Positions 55,158 to 63,507 of a stretch of DNA of 64,000 bases are shown here, piece by piece. The notes under the pieces are model-generated. The model did no database searches. It was not told the origin of the DNA and saw only the letters and a list, made by a program, of their open reading frames with translations. Each line of letters begins with the position of its first letter. Position 1 is the first letter of the stretch. The translations under genes were made by a program, and so were the position numbers. The DNA is from Deltaproteobacteria bacterium (GTDB lineage Bacteria > JAGRBM01 > JAHCIT01), in contig JAHCIT010000008.1 in assembly GCA_026129095.1 (NCBI GenBank), positions 133,021-197,020 on the forward strand. Reading direction: 5' to 3'.

Positions 55158-57446
55158 TTATTCGGTGGCTCCGGGGTTGTGGTCCCAGCCGGGATCGGGG
55201 GTGAATCCGGCGGGGAACGGCGAGGGTCCGGTGAGGCCGCGACGGCGGGCGTCGGCTTTCGTCACACCGCGCGTGGCGCACCGGCAGCGGTGGCCGTTGG
55301 GCGGCCAGATCGTACGCCACACGGGATCGGCCTTCGGCGCGACGAACCCGGCCAGCGCCGCGTGCGCCGGCCGCGTGCGGTCGTCGCCGACCGTCAGGTA
55401 TTCGTACCCCCAGTAGAAGTCGCCGAGGTCCGGGTCGTTCATCTGCTGCCAGCGGGCGCCGTTGTAGGCCTCGGCGGCGGTGTTCCTGAAAACGGTCTCG
55501 AGGTAGTGGTTCGACGCCGGCGTGTAACCGTGGTCCTGGTAGATCTGCCTCACTGAGTCCGTGAACTCCTTCAGGGTCTTCCCCTGCTCGAACGCCTCGG
55601 CGCGCGCCTTCTGGACGTCCGAGACGAACTGCTCCGTCACGTCGCCCGCGATGGAGAACGCCTTCCGGCGGGCGGCGTCCGCCACCGCCTTCAGCGCCTC
55701 CTGCGTCATCGGCAGCTTCGATGCGAACAGCTTCAGCGCCTCGGTGGGCACGAGGTTCAGGATGTTGATGGCGATGAAGTCGAGCGCCTCCACCGGTGCG
55801 AGGCGGAACCGGCCGTCCGGCGTCCAGCCGGACCGGCGGGCTTCGTCCACCACGGAGACGCGGCCCTCAAGGCGTCCGGCAAGAACAAGCCGCTCCATGA
55901 TGTCCACGAGCGGAAGCGGCGGAGCCATCCGCCAGGAGGCGAGCGACGGTAGCGCCCCGGCCGACTGCACCGCCGCGTCGAAGGCATCCCTCAGTTCGCG
56001 CATCGGGTCGCCGAACGTGCGGAGCGCCCGTTCCGAGAGTTCGTCGATCCGGTCGTGCCGCTCGCGGGAAAACTCGATCAGGTCGAGCCGCTCCGTCAGC
56101 GTCAGCTTTCGTGCGAACTCACGGGCGGGTCCATCTGATGGGGTCGCGGGCGGATTGTCCGGCGGGCCGCCGCCTTCTTCCGGCAGGGGCGATCCCGGCG
56201 CGGCTGGCGGGGCCGCCGCTTGAAGCACCGGTTCGCCGTCCTTCGGCGCCGGGATGCCGTAGGTCTCCCGGACGTAGCTTTCCGGAATCTCCACGCCCAT
56301 TTGCTGAAGCAGGCGGTCCCGCTCGGCGAGGCTCTTCTGGTCCGCCTTCGCGTCGTAGTTGATGACGAAGCGCGGGAAACGGTCCACGTTGAAATTGAAC
56401 CCGCAGATCCACGGGATGAGCTGGCCGTTGAAGACCTCCATCAGTTCCTCGCAGTCGCAGGCGGTCAGCTCCTCCTTGGTCCGAAGGTGAACCGCACCGA
56501 GCGCCTGGGTGCCGTTCCGGCCTTCGCCTGACGACAGCGTCTGTCCGATGATCGCCTGCGTGATCCCGTCGTCCAGCAGCTGGATCAGCGGGATGAATGA
56601 CAGGTTTCCAGCCTTCGCCAGCTCGCTCTCCAGAAGCGTCACCTTCACGTCGCCGGGGATCGTGACGCCGGACATCTCCTCGATCTCCGCGATCACCGCT
56701 TCGAGGTCGTCGATCTGCTCGTCCGTATAGGTATCCGGGTAGGTGGCGATGCTGGTCGGGGAGCCGAACTTCTTCGACATCCGCACCCACGAATCGATCA
56801 CCTGCCTCTTGAACCATGAGTACCAGTACACAAACTTCGCCTCGCCCTGGCCGTAGGGGTTGTCGTCTTCGGGCTCGTGTGTGAAGACGAGGAACTTCCG
56901 TTCCGGCAGCTCGACGCCGTTCTGAGGCTGCTCGCGGGTGAGCATCCGGAGATGGTTCTCGTGATCGAACACGAACCGGCGCGCGGGGCGGCCGAGAATC
57001 TTTGCGGGCACGATCAGCGTCCGGCCGAGGATGTCCCGTGTCTCCCAGACGATCTCGGCCACGGCGACGCCGGTGCCGATCCCGGCCAGCAGGTGGTTGT
57101 TGATCCGTTCCATGGGGAGCAGCAGGAGCATGGCCTCGACGGCCTCGCGGGCCTCCAGGTCGGCGGGTGTGTCTCCCGCGGGGACGATCTCCCAGGGCCG
57201 CCGGCGGGCAGAGACCCGGCGCTCACGGATGGCGGCGCGGACCTTCGGATCCTTGACCATCAGCTCCCGGTAGTGCTGGAGCGTCCGGCCTTCGTCCCGG
57301 AGCACCTCGTCGGGATTCCGCTTCACCGCGAGCCAGGCGTCGGTGCTGGCGGGATCGGAGCGGTCCGACCCGAGTGCGCCCGGCTCGGGCTTCAGCTTCT
57401 CGCCGCCGGCGGCGAATATCCTCAGAAAAGATTCTCTCAGTCCCAT
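55158..57446 (-). CDS. Portal protein (DUF935/gp29-like) fused to MuF/gp30 head morphogenesis domain
   Basis: DDNPYGQG...WFKR...KFGSP, IIGQTLSS, ALGAVH; C-terminal KAFSIAG, LETVFRN, GDDRTRPAH, WPPNGHRCRC in one frame. Confidence 0.9.
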   Translation of the reverse strand: MGLRESFLRIFAAGGEKLKPEPGALGSDRSDPASTDAWLAVKRNPDEVLRDEGRTLQHYRELMVKDPKVRAAIRERRVSARRRPWEIVPAGDTPADLEAREAVEAMLLLLPMERINNHLLAGIGTGVAVAEIVWETRDILGRTLIVPAKILGRPARRFVFDHENHLRMLTREQPQNGVELPERKFLVFTHEPEDDNPYGQGEAKFVYWYSWFKRQVIDSWVRMSKKFGSPTSIATYPDTYTDEQIDDLEAVIAEIEEMSGVTIPGDVKVTLLESELAKAGNLSFIPLIQLLDDGITQAIIGQTLSSGEGRNGTQALGAVHLRTKEELTACDCEELMEVFNGQLIPWICGFNFNVDRFPRFVINYDAKADQKSLAERDRLLQQMGVEIPESYVRETYGIPAPKDGEPVLQAAAPPAAPGSPLPEEGGGPPDNPPATPSDGPAREFARKLTLTERLDLIEFSRERHDRIDELSERALRTFGDPMRELRDAFDAAVQSAGALPSLASWRMAPPLPLVDIMERLVLAGRLEGRVSVVDEARRSGWTPDGRFRLAPVEALDFIAINILNLVPTEALKLFASKLPMTQEALKAVADAARRKAFSIAGDVTEQFVSDVQKARAEAFEQGKTLKEFTDSVRQIYQDHGYTPASNHYLETVFRNTAAEAYNGARWQQMNDPDLGDFYWGYEYLTVGDDRTRPAHAALAGFVAPKADPVWRTIWPPNGHRCRCATRGVTKADARRRGLTGPSPFPAGFTPDPGWDHNPGATE

Positions 57447-57468
57447 GGTTCCTCCGTGCCGACGGTGT

Positions 57469-58953
57469 TCACCGCCGCCGCGCAAACGCCTTGATCCGGC
57501 CGGCCGCCGTCCGGTGGCCGTCCATCGCCCCCGCCATGGCGTCCGGACCGTCGTCCTTCACCGAGGTGCGCGGATAGGCGAACAGCTGGTCGAGCAGGAT
57601 GCGGGTATCGCCCACGTTCCGGTTCGTGAGCAGCTCGCCCCGTTCCATCACCGGGGCGGCGCGTCCGATCCGGGTCTCCTTCGCCTCGCGGGCGGTCCAC
57701 ATCGTGAAGGGGAGCGAGTAGCCACGGCGCTGCGCCTCGTACCGGAACGGCTCCTTATAGAGAGAGGCGAAACCGTTCGACTCGAACCGCCAGACGCCGA
57801 TCTTCCGGCCGAACCGCTCGTAGATGTCGTAGTGCGCCCGGACGTATTCCTCCGGGGAATCTTTCCGGATGCGGACCTCGGCGATGTGATGGCGGCCGTC
57901 CTTCAGCGCGTCCACGACGATCACCTTGAAGTCGTTTGATCGCCCCTGACCGGCAGCCGGGTCCGAGTGGGCGGCGAGGCGGAAACCGTCCCAGCGGCCG
58001 ATCAGCGCGTCGGGATAGGAGGTCTCCCACGACGGCCGGAACATCATGCCGTCCTCGTTCGGCTCCCCGTCGTACTCCTGCGCGTAGAGACGCGAACCGA
58101 GCCGGGCCAGTTCGGCGTCCAGGAACGCGGTGCTCTTGATGAGCGGTGCGATCGATTCGCCCCGTTCGTCCCGCGAACGCCAGATCCGGCATTCCCAGGC
58201 GTGCGAGAATTCCGAGTCGCCTTTTACCAGCCGCGAGAGCGCGGCGGTCTTGGACACCAGCGTGCCCACCCAGGTGAGCGTCCAGCCCTTCGGCGACAGG
58301 GCCGGAATGACCTTCGCCATCATGTCGGTGAGCAGCGCGTTCACCCGGTCCGGGTTCCGCGCCAGTTCCTCGTCTTCAAGGTCGTCGAACACGCCGAAGT
58401 CGGGACGCTGGCCTCTGGTGACGAGGCCGCGAATCGGCTGGCTGAGTCCCAGCGCCATCAGCCGGGCGCCGCTGCGGATCGTGAAGTCGGTCTGCGTCCA
58501 GGCGCCTTCGGTCCACTGGGGGCCGTAGTCGCACAGGAGGCGCTCGTTCGCCTCGAACTCGTCGCGCACGGCCGTCACGAAGTTCGAGGCGAGGTCTTCG
58601 GTGATCGACTGGACGAAGCCGAACCGGTAGCCGGCGCACAGCATTTTCCAGATCGGCATGCCGAACGACGTGACCGTGGATTTTCCGAAGCCGCGGGGGC
58701 CGACGGTCGCGGACGGTTTATCCCGGAGCAGCGACACGCCGATCAGCGCTCGGTGAAACTCCGACAGCTCCGTCTCGAACCAGTGAGGCAGATAGGTGCG
58801 GAGGAACCAGCCCGGGTCTTTGGCCGCCCGTTCGCGGCGGAGGCGGCATGCCTCCGGCGACACATCCTCGAACGGCAGAACCGACTGGAGCCGCTTCGCG
58901 CGGATCTCCTCCATCGCCCGGAGGTAGTCACTGATCTTCAGCTGGTGGCTCAC
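57469..58953 (-). CDS. Terminase large subunit
   Basis: Walker A GPRGFGKST, Walker B FGVFDDLED, nuclease DPA and DDGPDA. Confidence 0.92.
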   Translation of the reverse strand: MSHQLKISDYLRAMEEIRAKRLQSVLPFEDVSPEACRLRRERAAKDPGWFLRTYLPHWFETELSEFHRALIGVSLLRDKPSATVGPRGFGKSTVTSFGMPIWKMLCAGYRFGFVQSITEDLASNFVTAVRDEFEANERLLCDYGPQWTEGAWTQTDFTIRSGARLMALGLSQPIRGLVTRGQRPDFGVFDDLEDEELARNPDRVNALLTDMMAKVIPALSPKGWTLTWVGTLVSKTAALSRLVKGDSEFSHAWECRIWRSRDERGESIAPLIKSTAFLDAELARLGSRLYAQEYDGEPNEDGMMFRPSWETSYPDALIGRWDGFRLAAHSDPAAGQGRSNDFKVIVVDALKDGRHHIAEVRIRKDSPEEYVRAHYDIYERFGRKIGVWRFESNGFASLYKEPFRYEAQRRGYSLPFTMWTAREAKETRIGRAAPVMERGELLTNRNVGDTRILLDQLFAYPRTSVKDDGPDAMAGAMDGHRTAAGRIKAFARRR

Positions 58954-59953: not shown

Positions 59954-60397
59954 TTAATGCCGTTCCGGCGGCCGGAACGGCGGTCGGACCTGGATGTGGA
60001 TGTGGGCGCCCTGGCCGACATCGTGATAAAGCGCGGTGGGGTAGCGGGCGGCGGGGGAGCCGAACGGCGCGTACGGGAACTCGCGGTTCAGCTTCGTGAC
60101 GAGGCTTTTGATGGTGGCGGCGTCCAGGTCACGTGTGCGGATGTCCACGGCCCGGCCGTCCTCGTGCGGCGACTTCACGGGTTCCTGCCGCCCGAGGCGG
60201 ATCGCCTCGGCGCGGTATCGCGCCTGAGTCTCCGCGTCACGGAAAACGCAGGTGATCGTGAGGGTCTTGCCGCGCTCGCTTAAGTATTCGGCGGCGGCGC
60301 GAATGACAGGCTGCAGCCGCACGTCGGCCCGGAAGAGCTGGTCCTCCAGCTCCGGGACCTTGAACGCAATCGTGAACTTGGGCGCGGCACCGGCCAT
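59954..60397 (-). CDS. Endolysin, peptidase M15-like Zn D,D/L,D-peptidase
   Basis: TCVFR...Q, SPHEDGRAVD (SxHxxGxAxD), HIHI; first late gene. Confidence 0.8.
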   Translation of the reverse strand: MAGAAPKFTIAFKVPELEDQLFRADVRLQPVIRAAAEYLSERGKTLTITCVFRDAETQARYRAEAIRLGRQEPVKSPHEDGRAVDIRTRDLDAATIKSLVTKLNREFPYAPFGSPAARYPTALYHDVGQGAHIHIQVRPPFRPPERH

Positions 60398-60403
60398 GCC
60401 GCG

Positions 60404-60436
60404 AGGTTACGGACGGGCGGTTCCGGTTTGCGGGAC
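60404..60436 (-). promoter_or_regulatory. Candidate phage late promoter, copy 1 (19-bp motif plus -10 TAACCT) upstream of lysis genes
   Basis: Minus strand GTCCCGCAAACCGGAACCG-N8-TAACCT-N6-ATG. Confidence 0.72.
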
Positions 60437-60544
60437 TAGGGGTTGAGCCGGGGACGTTCTAGTGGTGGAGTTTGCGGGCGTTGCCTCCCCGCAACTGCCT
60501 GATCGAGTCCAATGAACTCTCCCGGTAGTGGGTCAGTTTGAGGA

Positions 60545-61099
60545 TTAACGGCGATTTTTGCGCCGAGCTTCCCGCTCAGCCTTTCGTCTATCTCTGCGAT
60601 CTGGTTTGTGGCCACCTGTGTTAACCGACCGCTTAGATGGGGGTTCTGGGATTACCGGGATAATGTCGCAATATGCGCCACTGCCATCATAGATCAAACG
60701 GACAAATCGGAAAAAATCTCTCCCTAAAAGGCCATTAAATGGGCGTGGATTTGGCGGTGTGGCCATCCCAATCATCTCGGATGTAAAAGTAATTCCTCTT
60801 TTTTTGGTACCGTCCCCGACCACCAATGTGATACTCAGCAAATAGACTGGGCAGTTTTCCGGGACATGGGAGACCCCCGTCATTTCTTCAAATCGGATAG
60901 GCACAATCCCCAAAGACTCTGCAATCCCTCTGTCGATAACCGTTTTTTGTGCCCCAGTATCGACCATAAGGCGCACTTTAACGCCTCCGGCCTGGGCCGA
61001 AGCCTCCCCTGCTTGAAGGGGTCGAGTAAGAGTAACTTCTACGAGAGGCCCCTGAAGGACCAGTGAATCAGCATTGGCGCTCTGGCAACGATGCTTCAC
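60545..61099 (-). CDS. Retropepsin-like (clan AA) aspartic protease with basic C-terminal tail
   Basis: LMVDTGAQKTVI catalytic motif; GLLGRDFF psi-loop; AT-rich codons; GTGA overlap with upstream gene. Confidence 0.87.
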   Translation of the reverse strand: MKHRCQSANADSLVLQGPLVEVTLTRPLQAGEASAQAGGVKVRLMVDTGAQKTVIDRGIAESLGIVPIRFEEMTGVSHVPENCPVYLLSITLVVGDGTKKRGITFTSEMIGMATPPNPRPFNGLLGRDFFRFVRLIYDGSGAYCDIIPVIPEPPSKRSVNTGGHKPDRRDRRKAEREARRKNRR

Positions 61100-61356
61100 G
61101 CGTAAGAAAGGCCGAACATTACTGCTGTGGTGACAGGTGTCGCGGCTTGTTCCACAACGGGGCCGATAACATAGCCAGCCTCAGCCCCAAATTCTTTTAA
61201 GGCGGATTCGTAGGCGCTGCGCTCGTCATCGTGGAAGCTCTTTACCGAACCGCCGAGAAAAACCACCCATTTGCCGGGATGCGTTTTCAGGAGTTCTGGA
61301 AGCGCCTTCCTGAATTGCAGAGTTTCCTGTAAGACTTTTTCAGATGTAGTCGTCAT
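61096..61356 (-). CDS. Small DUF5678-like protein
   Basis: LPELLKTHPGKWVVFLGGSV...AYESALKEFG; GGTGGTGAG upstream of ATG 61356. Confidence 0.72.
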   Translation of the reverse strand: MTTTSEKVLQETLQFRKALPELLKTHPGKWVVFLGGSVKSFHDDERSAYESALKEFGAEAGYVIGPVVEQAATPVTTAVMFGLSYA

Positions 61357-61547
61357 ATGGCTCACCACCGTTTTTACAATAACCATCATACGTGTCCATG
61401 TCTAGTGGTATCCCAGAAGCCCAACCAGTTCCGCGATGAACTCTCCCGCTCGCTGGACCTATGAAGAGCTTTTCGCCGCACACAGGCGAGAACCCCTCTA
61501 AACTTACTCGTCCTAATTGGTCCGCCCGAACCCCCACTAGCCTCCGG

Positions 61548-61583
61548 GTTTCACACAGAACTCTGCGGGCGCAGTGCGTCAAA
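61548..61583. repeat. 36-bp repeated element, copy A
   Basis: GTTTCAC-acagaactct-GCGGGCGCAGTGCGTCAAA. Confidence 0.8.
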
Positions 61584-61586
61584 GGT

Positions 61587-62195
61587 CTATTCGCCGGATT
61601 TCTGTGCCCGCCGGAACTCCCACGGCGGTTCAGGGCCGTCCTCGTGCCATATCCCGAGGCGGTCCGCTTTCGCAGCGGCCTCCGCCTCCTCGAGCGCCCG
61701 GTCGTCTCCCGCGTACTGCCGGTACCACCAGGCCCACCCGGAGCGCACCATCTCAATCTCCACGTCACGGCCGTCGTCGGTGGTGACGCGCCCGACGGTT
61801 CGCTGGTAGCGGTCGCGCTGCCGGGGCTCGACGATCACGGTGCCCGACGACACCAGCGACTCCAGGAATCTCCACGCCTCCTCGCCGCCGGGCTGGCCGT
61901 CCCGGCCCCGCTTCGGCGTCTCCGGAGCATCCACTCCGCCGAGCCGAACCGTCACGAGGATGGCGCCGGGCGGCAGGCACGCCGGCTCCACATCGAGCGT
62001 GTCTCCGTCCTTGACCTTGACTACTCGCGCCGCAAAGGACTTCGAGCCCGCCGATACTGGCGCGTCGCAACGGCAATCCAGTGGCGCGGTCTCACTGACC
62101 GGCGCGATGCACCCCGCGAGGAGCAGGAGCGCCGCGAAGAGCGCGGTGAGCTCACTTCGCGTGCGCGAGTCTGACGATGGCGGACGACAGCTCAT
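61587..62195 (-). CDS. Thermonuclease (SNase-like) lipoprotein
   Basis: Lipobox LAGC; VVKVKDGDT, VRLGGVDAPE, RDRYQRTVG, MVRSGWAWWY, PPWEFR. Confidence 0.9.
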   Translation of the reverse strand: MSCRPPSSDSRTRSELTALFAALLLLAGCIAPVSETAPLDCRCDAPVSAGSKSFAARVVKVKDGDTLDVEPACLPPGAILVTVRLGGVDAPETPKRGRDGQPGGEEAWRFLESLVSSGTVIVEPRQRDRYQRTVGRVTTDDGRDVEIEMVRSGWAWWYRQYAGDDRALEEAEAAAKADRLGIWHEDGPEPPWEFRRAQKSGE

Positions 62196-62631
62196 CGCGG
62201 CCCCTTACCGTCTTCTCGGCCGGATCGTAATCCCACCAGAACACCGACTCGGTTCCGTTGTGCTCGACTTTCACGAAGTGTATCCAGACTGGTTTCGAGC
62301 CGGTCACACTGACGCCGGGAACCGTGTTCCGGTCAATCTCCCTCCACCCGCTCGTGACGGCGTAAACGTCCAGGATTTCCCGGAAGGTCTCCGTCCCCTG
62401 TTTCGAGGCGAGGATATTTTCCGTCGCCTGTTCGCGGGTGAGCCCGCCGGGCGCCTCCGGCCCGCACATCGCGAGCACCACGCCGATCAGGACCCCAAGC
62501 ACGATGATGCCGAGGCACCCCTTGCCGAGCTTTCGACCCTGCGCTTCAAGCTCGGCCTGCTTCGCCGCCTTCTGCTCCTCGATCCGGACCCGCTCCTCGT
62601 CCCTGATCCGCTGCTCTTCTTCCGGTGTCAT
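62152..62631 (-). CDS. Single-TM hypothetical membrane protein
   Basis: GGAGG before ATG 62631; charged N-terminal helix, TM GCLGIIVLGVLIGVVLAMC, exported domain. Confidence 0.68.
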   Translation of the reverse strand: MTPEEEQRIRDEERVRIEEQKAAKQAELEAQGRKLGKGCLGIIVLGVLIGVVLAMCGPEAPGGLTREQATENILASKQGTETFREILDVYAVTSGWREIDRNTVPGVSVTGSKPVWIHFVKVEHNGTESVFWWDYDPAEKTVRGRDELSSAIVRLAHAK

Positions 62632-62646
62632 TGTCACCCCTCCCAC

Positions 62647-62682
62647 GTTTCACGCGCCCCGGCGCGGGCGCAGTGCGTCAAA
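62647..62682. repeat. 36-bp repeated element, copy B
   Basis: GTTTCAC-gcgccccggc-GCGGGCGCAGTGCGTCAAA; overlaps the repressor stop codon. Confidence 0.8.
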
Positions 62683-63448
62683 TCTTCCGGCCGAGCCAGA
62701 CGACCCGGCCTTTCAGTTCAAACCCCCGCCCGTCGTTCTCGTCCACCTCGAACGATTCGTACCGGGGATTGTCGCTGATAATCCGGATCTTCCCGGACGG
62801 CGTCCGCTGCAGCCGCTTTACGGACAGCGCGTCGCCTTGGCGGATGACGTAGACGCCGCCGGAACCGACCGTCTTCTGCCGGAGATCCACGAGCAGGATG
62901 TCGCCGCCCAGGATCGCCGGCTCCATCGAATCCCCTTCGGCAGAGATCAGACGGAAATCCTCTTCCGGATTCGAAGTCCGGAGTTCGCGCCGGAGCCACT
63001 CGGTGCGGAACGCCATTTTCACGATCTCGCGCTCCTCGCCCACATCGTTTCCCGGGCCGGCGCTCGCCCGGACATTGAGCAGCGGGATGCGGGCGAAGTC
63101 GCGGGCGAACTGGACTTCATAGGCGGATGCCATTTCGGCCAGCCCGGCCTTCTTCATGGGCCGGACAGCGGAATCCTGCAGGGCGGCAGTATCGTCCGAC
63201 AGCTCTTCTCGGAATGCCGCCTTCACCAGTTCGGCGGGCTTGCGAAGCATCGGCCCCTCGCCGGTCTCCAGCCATTTCAGGTTCACCCCGCGAATCGCGA
63301 GCGCGGTTGAAACGAGTGTCTTTGGGGCTTCGCTGACGTCGTTTTCCCAAGCCGAGACGGTCTTTTGCGACACCCCTAGGACCTGGCTCAGGTCGGCCTG
63401 AGTCAAGTCGAGTGCATCCCTTAGTGATTTCAACTGTTTACCAAACAT
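62678..63448 (-). CDS. CI-like phage repressor (XRE HTH plus peptidase S24)
   Basis: LKSLR...LTQADLSQVLGVSQKTVSAWEN; ASAGPG cleavage site; GDSMEP (Ser) and VKRL (Lys); alternative start 63475. Confidence 0.93.
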   Translation of the reverse strand: MFGKQLKSLRDALDLTQADLSQVLGVSQKTVSAWENDVSEAPKTLVSTALAIRGVNLKWLETGEGPMLRKPAELVKAAFREELSDDTAALQDSAVRPMKKAGLAEMASAYEVQFARDFARIPLLNVRASAGPGNDVGEEREIVKMAFRTEWLRRELRTSNPEEDFRLISAEGDSMEPAILGGDILLVDLRQKTVGSGGVYVIRQGDALSVKRLQRTPSGKIRIISDNPRYESFEVDENDGRGFELKGRVVWLGRKI

Positions 63449-63507
63449 TGGTAAAATATCTTGACTTAATACCATAATCAGGTATTACTCATACCATAAT
63501 ATGGAAC
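63437..63507. promoter_or_regulatory. Divergent immunity switch with three 17-bp operators (WTACC-N7-GGTAW) and TTGACT -35
   Basis: TTACCAAACATTGGTAA 63438-63454; ATACCATAATCAGGTAT 63469-63485; ATACCATAATATGGAAC 63491-63507; TTGACT 63461-63466. Confidence 0.78.

Follow-up and report, generated by a model that had tools for sequence, protein, structure and literature searches.

Retropepsin-type proteases are homodimers in which each chain supplies one Asp to an extended cleft, and their bacterial members are called rare in the accessible text of PMC11957791. The characterised bacterial retropepsin RimB is presented there as a regulatory enzyme and not as a toxin, and prokaryotic single-domain clan AA peptidases are described as little known in the accessible part of PMC2642776. 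An aspartic-protease toxin is not mentioned in the main texts of PMC2701414, PMC3632139 and PMC4158269, as far as these were accessible, and the only protease toxin candidate in them is the zincin COG2856. Candidate defence genes have been grouped as PDCs, which are defined by their embedding in restriction-modification (RM), BREX or DISARM loci; one embedded instance has been proposed as enough to warrant defence testing (accessible text of bioRxiv 10.1101/2024.01.29.577857). The PDCs are described as unvalidated in the accessible text of 10.1101/2025.01.08.631726.

Here, we describe a two-gene cassette from a 64,000-nucleotide stretch of contig JAHCIT010000008.1 of a Deltaproteobacteria bacterium (positions 133,021 to 197,020; hereafter the window), which joins a retropepsin-like protease to a small partner protein. 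The small partner gene (61096..61356, -) starts with the ATG at 61356 and encodes 86 aa, with the string HPGKWVVF at residues 26-33. The gene of the clan AA retropepsin-like aspartic protease (60545..61099, -) has a GTG start and encodes 184 aa, including DTGA at residues 47-50, the flap Gly75, and LLGRD at 124-128. Its last part encodes a C-terminal extension (60545..60643, -), which in the structural model consists of a Pro/Gly-rich linker (residues about 152-167) and a basic helix (168-183). The two genes share a 4-nt GTGA stop/start overlap, read in the sequence at 61096..61099 (-), which indicates translational coupling. An earlier, sequence-only reading of the window had described two coupled genes, the second with an intact DTGA...LLGRD and a basic tail, and all of these features are present at these positions.

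The cassette was also described as AT-rich, which is correct in a relative sense (GC 0.517 for the pair versus 0.647 for the window) but not in itself, the pair being 48% AT. Among 632 sliding windows of 812 nt, two are at or under the GC content of the pair, and all six below 0.56 overlap it. The GC3 values of the two genes (0.54 and 0.47) likewise fall below the range of ten flanking prophage genes (0.75-0.89).

A sigma-70-like promoter candidate (TAGACA-17-TATTGT; 61376..61404, -) lies 20 nt upstream of the start of the small gene. It is the sole promoter match in 60200-61800, where 0.6 would be expected by chance, and is weak alone; a promoter-like site occupies a similar position in one related locus (L004), and none was found at the corresponding position in another (L003). 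An alternative start at 61389, giving a small protein of 97 aa, falls within the promoter-like site. For this reason, and because relatives begin at the shorter start, the 86-aa form is preferred. A 13-bp direct repeat brackets the promoter candidate and both genes, with one exact copy upstream of the promoter candidate (61436..61448, +) and the other 20 nt beyond the protease stop (60512..60524, +). Of 209 control flank pairs taken from the window, 2 share a repeat of at least 13 nt, and the repeat around the cassette is a possible insertion scar or, alternatively, an operator pair. As a feature of the family it was rejected: it was not seen in the nine related loci (L001-L009), whose longest flank matches measure 7-15 nt, the long ones being GC-rich, and its 10-nt core is absent from all 11 fetched loci. 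Structured RNA in the flanks was likewise rejected, with folding z-scores of +0.3 to +1.3. No terminator match was found after the protease stop, nor any operator-like inverted repeat of at least 10 nt in the promoter region.

The pair sits in a Mu-like contractile-tailed prophage, which encodes Mu portal and Mu F domains, a terminase, capsid, sheath, tape measure, and baseplate. Its S24-type cI gene (62678-63475) carries an S24 autoprotease domain of its own, and a probable M15-type endolysin, recognised through weak matches, is encoded downstream of the pair. Between cI and the pair lie two genes (61587-62646, -), one for a membrane protein and one for an SNase. The former product has 164 aa, one hydrophobic segment, and no family match; the latter has 202 aa and a lipoprotein-like N-terminus. 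Since their GC3 is phage-like (0.82-0.83), these two genes look like older residents of the prophage, and they possibly serve superinfection exclusion or extracellular DNA degradation. Elsewhere in the prophage, a 775-aa ORF (55158-57485, -) represents a Mu-type portal fused to Mu protein F domains. From about 37500 to 64000 the late genes share the strand of cI and point away from it, and a Ner-like gene diverges at 63501, a layout that we take to be unlike that of Mu itself and reminiscent of B3/BcepMu-type phages. Placement of the cassette between the repressor block and the late promoter, as the sequence-only reading had it, needs amending in that two genes separate it from cI and the late promoter was not located; the co-orientation with cI is real but not diagnostic, since the late genes share that strand. 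PHROGs holds no family for either the protease or the small protein.

The larger protein scores above the Pfam gathering cut-offs for Asp_protease_2 (PF13650, 33.1 versus 24.3 bits; PF13975, 30.4 versus 28.2 bits; E 1e-7) and below both curated cut-offs of the clan AA subfamilies TIGR02281 (19.8 versus 57.95 bits) and TIGR03698 (13.2 versus 57.35 bits). The monomer model (pLDDT 91) shows a complete retropepsin fold that aligns over residues 1-151 with APRc (5c9b; Z 11.5, rmsd 2.5 A, 112 aligned residues) and with retroviral proteases (Z 10-11), in agreement with Foldseek; further matches are Ddi1 (7d66, Z 9.2) and PA0462 (9g59, Z 8.3). The protein shows no evident signal peptide or membrane segment. 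By analogy with characterised retropepsins, the protease is expected to be homodimeric. A profile search returned 294 matches, of which the best 120 gave an alignment of 119 rows. Among these, D47 is kept in 118 of 119 proteins, T48, A50, G75, and G123-L-x-G-R-D-F are invariant, and E values of at most 0.001 are reached against TIGR02281 by 18 and against TIGR03698 by 7 of the 119.

Of the same 119 homologues (best 120 of 294 matches), 87 have a net charge of at least +6 in their last 18 residues and 23, some of them possibly fragments, have +2 or less; thus, the basic tail is typical of the family yet dispensable. An Atlas structure search with the model from residue 45 onward retrieved two clusters of proteins of about 190 aa in which SEC-C, the SecA metal-binding domain, is present in 83% and 72% of members. 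These SEC-C-bearing aspartyl protease clusters are rows 3 and 5 of the structure results, and one of them is 80% viral. The SecA metal-binding domain co-sediments weakly with ribosomes, and basic tails have been suggested to keep that interaction (accessible text of PMC6620043); a SEC-C motif is also carried by the anti-phage protein Rugutis (accessible text of PMC13064643). Ribosome targeting by the protease tail is therefore plausible by analogy with the SEC-C relatives, together with the basic tail itself. The proposal that this tail directs the enzyme to nucleic acid or ribosomes gains indirect support from the SEC-C relatives and the accessible text of PMC6620043, and loses from the 23 of 119 homologues (best 120 of 294) in which the tail is missing or weak.

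The small protein matches DUF5678 (PF18929) with 18.8 bits (E 0.0015), below the gathering cut-off of 23.2, and its orthologue in L001, 67% identical, passes the cut-off with 24.7 bits. Its top match in the Atlas is a DUF5678 cluster (score 0.90). The family comprises 363 clusters at 50% identity; of the best 150, which divide into 115 short and 35 longer or fused proteins, 19 match DUF5678 at an E value of at most 0.001 and 8 pass the cut-off. The small protein is thus likely a divergent branch of DUF5678, as judged from these profile scores. Profile confirmation of the two family labels given by the sequence-only reading is accordingly firm for the protease and falls short of the cut-off for the window's small protein. 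In the literature searched, the sole mention of DUF5678 is in an unrelated plant study, as far as its text was accessible.

The monomer model of the small protein (pLDDT 81) has a core of a helix, a three-stranded sheet, and a second helix (residues 4-66), followed by a hydrophobic C-terminal tail (residues about 72-83) of low confidence (pLDDT 49-54). Among the best 150 of 363 matches, tail positions are conserved as P74 in 59/118, T/S76 in 86/116, F/Y81 in 86/109, and G82 in 64/109 sequences, and the tail motif occurs in 55 of the 115 short homologues, against a shuffle mean of 2.5, and in 6 of the 35 longer or fused ones. All ten small proteins paired with a protease carry it. A hydrophobic tail that is conserved and modelled as unfolded may serve as a binding or cleavage element. 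The best-kept core positions are hydrophobic or Gly (L22, W30, F33, A48, G57), and no conserved polar catalytic constellation is found among them. Searches of Pfam and NCBIfam gave no match to an HTH, RHH, or AbrB antitoxin family, fold searches with the model gave no clear match (best Z 3.6; Foldseek best E 0.8), and a PDB sequence search returned chance-level rows (best E 0.04, a kindlin PH domain).

Two other explanations of the tail and the gene arrangement were rejected. A membrane anchor is contradicted by a best 19-residue hydropathy of 1.2 and by the shortness of the tail. A split gene is contradicted by the protease fold, which is complete alone, by the dissimilarity of the two profiles, and by the 275 fetched proteins, none of which matches both, in searches that covered the best 150 of 363 and the best 120 of 294 matches; as residues 1-151 of the protease align to APRc without the partner, the tail is not required as a missing strand. 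The longer proteins with a DUF5678-like core (35 of the best 150 of 363, among P0053-P0171) mostly lack the tail; in P0087 the core stands behind a PHROG 20753 domain, in P0145 behind a Fis-type HTH, and P0136 is a tandem duplicate. It might be speculated that some of these proteins are phage-borne decoys of the partner.

A scan of GTDB genomes with one conserved pattern, which yields a lower bound on occurrence, led to 71 stretches, 12 confirmed cases, and 11 loci. Nine of these loci (L001-L009), from Myxococcales, Deltaproteobacteria, and similar MAGs, hold true relatives. The remaining two (L010 and L011; E 5e-4 and 6e-4, 28-30% identity) belong to different aspartyl-protease families and were excluded from the co-occurrence count, and neither has the small gene. 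Counted from the protease side, the small gene stands directly upstream of the protease gene in 9/9 true relatives; a lack of co-occurrence elsewhere, which the sequence-only reading had named as refuting, is thus not what was found. Together with the window these make ten loci, in which the junction is a 4-nt overlap in seven, an 8-nt overlap in one, and a gap of 4 or 7 nt in two. Pairwise divergence of the two genes correlates across the seven complete loci (rho 0.76, exact Mantel p 0.026; L005, L008, and L009 were left out because of gaps or a deletion), which, at the level of sequence, indicates co-inheritance and not contact. Where dS is unsaturated, dN/dS is low, as under purifying selection (0.09 and 0.14 for L001 versus L002, and 0.15 for the small gene in the window versus L001; the remaining comparisons are saturated), and both ORFs are therefore real genes. 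The GC content of the pair is lower than that of the rest of the locus in 9/9 relatives and among the lowest 6% of windows in 6/9.

The neighbours of the pair, read from 65 script-picked ORFs within about 6 kb, differ in all ten loci, and there is no conserved third gene. In L001, hsdS and hsdR of a type I RM operon flank the pair, which runs in the opposite direction. Further cargo of this operon (L001:6973-9738) comprises a DUF433 gene and its partner of 172 aa, a PHROG 2602 gene of 190 aa, and, adjoining the pair, an ORF that looks truncated. In L002, hsdM, hsdS, and a ClpP-like gene precede the pair, which is thus one gene from hsdS, and the contig ends behind it. The HsdM proteins of these two loci are 29% identical and the pair genes 83% and 69%; the cassette therefore reached unrelated RM loci separately. 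Elsewhere, the pair is accompanied by two AlbA_2 genes (L003), stands directly behind an RtcR-like activator with a DUF1016-SNase gene also near (L004), adjoins genes for a NucC-like/PD-(D/E)XK nuclease, MqsA, and PIN (L005), or is flanked by an HTH repressor gene and an ImmA/RmrA-like gene within an element that also encodes prim-pol, ParB, and integrase (L006). Among the neighbours scanned in the remaining three of the nine loci (L007, L008, L009), no defence or mobile gene was found. As a raw tally without a background rate, one of the nine pairs is embedded in type I RM, one is RM-adjacent, one has a nuclease/TA context, two have weaker contexts, one lies in a mobile element, and three have none. 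The defence setting proposed beforehand is thus seen in several loci and missing from three of nine. Near the loci scanned no cas genes were found, and neither the window nor L001-L009 showed a match to the RimK/ATP-grasp family among the neighbours scanned.

In L008, about 50 residues of the protease (gene at L008:7171-7476), among them the catalytic motif, have been lost in frame; the sequence contains no N bases, and the partner gene is intact. If the protease is the harmful member of the pair, a loss on its side only would be expected, and this single case could reflect that, but the deletion might also be an artefact of assembly.

Addiction modules are usually common in plasmid and phage records. 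A tblastn search with both proteins and three homologues gave no match in 50,697 phage or 72,556 plasmid records, sets that favour cultured hosts. Moreover, the repressor regions of recognisable mobile elements hold only two of the ten loci, and in eight of the ten no repressor stands next to the pair. The pair, called a moron by the sequence-only reading, is therefore not a phage-specific moron family. The claim in that reading of a horizontally acquired, coupled two-gene module is borne out by the pairing, the overlap, the foreign GC content, and the varied neighbours: the module is conserved, mobile, coupled, and foreign to its surroundings, and both genes are real.

As the best explanation we tentatively propose, at somewhat below an even chance, that the pair is a self-contained mobile effector/inhibitor module, similar to type II TA or abortive-infection systems, with a retroviral-type aspartic protease as effector. 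Coupling would ensure that the partner is made before the protease and is no less abundant, and the tail of the partner would occupy or cover the dimer cleft in the manner of a pseudo-substrate, so that the enzyme is held off. Loss of the partner, whether the cassette is lost, its expression is shut off, the partner is degraded, or a phage protein binds the partner's core, would free the protease. The basic helix would then draw the freed enzyme to ribosomes or another polyanion, where host proteins would be cut and the cell arrested. In this prophage, the module might stabilise the lysogen or block unrelated phages. We consider it rather unlikely that this holds in its most specific form, namely a TA or abortive-infection toxin that is a retroviral-type aspartic protease, silenced in trans by a DUF5678 tail acting as pseudo-substrate, with a partner core that senses phage and a basic helix, interchangeable with SEC-C, that aims the enzyme at the ribosome. 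Points that appear to favour the effector/inhibitor reading are the 9/9 pairing, the co-divergence, the foreign GC content, the RM, nuclease, and TA contexts, the asymmetry in L008, the tail motif in the paired proteins, and the SEC-C relatives. Those that appear to weigh against it are the lack of an antitoxin-type domain or operator, the three of nine loci without defence context, the lack of plasmid and phage matches, the weak tail in 23 of 119 protease homologues, and the regulatory nature of RimB. With no HTH, RHH, or AbrB match for the small protein in Pfam or NCBIfam and no inverted repeat of at least 10 nt in the promoter region, canonical TA autoregulation is not evident.

Coupling and co-inheritance would be equally expected if the small protein were a dedicated substrate or activator of the protease, its tail being clipped to release an active core, or the protein promoting dimerisation and delivering substrates. 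The tail, short, hydrophobic, flexible, and conserved, resembles a cleavage site; the core recurs in longer fusions of which 6 of 35 (best 150 of 363) keep the tail, so that it may act alone; and other protein factors are often required to activate the bacterial A2 peptidases characterised so far (accessible text of PMC11957791). We nevertheless consider this arrangement rather unlikely, as the core has neither a conserved polar catalytic constellation nor a toxin-like fold match (best Z 3.6), and the retention of the small gene in L008 after loss of the catalytic segment fits only if the uncut form is harmless. The three of nine loci in which the pair stands among housekeeping-type genes, and the one in which it directly follows an RtcR-like activator (L004), would instead fit a module outside defence: a pair serving stress response or proteostasis, such as a RimB-like ribosome-associated regulatory protease, that hitchhikes into variable regions. 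The basic tail and the SEC-C relatives would be compatible with ribosome binding without killing, and RimB itself is a retropepsin that regulates the modification of ribosomal protein S6 and has a patchy, accessory distribution (accessible text of PMC11957791). We consider such a role rather unlikely as well, given that neither RimK nor a conserved third gene accompanies the pair, that its neighbours differ in 10/10 loci, and that it recurs at RM loci and in the repressor regions of mobile elements with a composition foreign to every host.

That the pair lies close to cI in the window, and in L006 has an HTH repressor gene on one side and an ImmA/RmrA-like gene on the other, would also suit a lysis-lysogeny regulator, whose protease would cut the carrier element's repressor or some other of its regulators, with the small protein as the switch; the largely viral cluster of SEC-C-bearing structural neighbours (80%) is in line with this. 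We regard such a function as very improbable, because eight of the ten loci have no repressor adjoining the pair, the cI of the window already possesses an S24 autoprotease domain, the base composition of the cassette departs from that of this phage, and PHROGs lacks a family for either protein.

The pair is real, conserved, mobile, and apparently uncharacterised, and would be an addiction or defence module with unusual chemistry if the effector/inhibitor reading holds. Few bacterial retropepsins have a known function, and the family is sizeable and uncharacterised, with 363 clusters of small proteins and 294 protease matches. If true, this reading would introduce a new effector chemistry into bacterial immunity, along with a natural protein inhibitor of an HIV-protease-like fold, and the DUF5678 pseudo-substrate version would assign a function to DUF5678 and an immune role to bacterial retropepsins. 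At less than 1 kb, and with D47N as an obvious catalytic mutant and two tails that can be removed, the pair makes direct testing feasible.

No characterised system in PADLOC or the literature searched matches the pair, as the sequence-only reading had supposed, and no description of the pair itself was found in the full-text literature searched, which covers subscription papers thinly. In PADLOC, PDC-M08B (models of 127-128 positions) weakly matches the protease (18.1 bits, E 5e-4), at a level far below that of a family match and mostly through the DTG motif, and its model is about 55 aa shorter than the protease. Among the protease homologues (best 120 of 294 matches), 48 of 119 match PDC-M08B at an E value of at most 0.01, the best at 1.4e-5, whereas the PDC-M08 models match none of 126 small proteins at that threshold and none of nine at an E value of at most 1. 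Like a PDC, the pair is embedded in an RM locus in L001. PDC-M08 is not named in the main text of 10.1101/2024.01.29.577857 or in the literature searched, as far as these were accessible; a related pair may have been listed computationally in the supplements of that PDC-defining preprint.

With APRc of Rickettsia, RimB of Pseudomonas, COG3577/COG5550, TIGR02281/TIGR03698, and the RVP domain of Ddi1, the protease shares the fold and the DTG and hydrophobic-hydrophobic-G motifs, and RimB would resemble it further in acting on a ribosomal protein. What sets the protease described here apart from these bacterial retropepsins is its basic C-terminal helix and, where RimB has RimK, an obligatory DUF5678-like partner. 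The type III CRISPR-associated aspartic protease of the Saci_1895 type is similar in being a small retropepsin that serves as an accessory gene of a defence locus, but it has about 100 aa, occurs in Sulfolobales cas cassettes, and is described without a small partner (accessible text of PMC3973734). From type II TA systems the pair differs in having a clan AA protease as its putative toxin and a partner that shows no known DNA-binding antitoxin fold. It resembles them in its coupled operon of a small gene followed by a larger one, its promoter-like site, its mobility and patchy occurrence, its position beside RM, PIN, and MqsA genes, and the loss, in one locus (L008), of the putative effector only.
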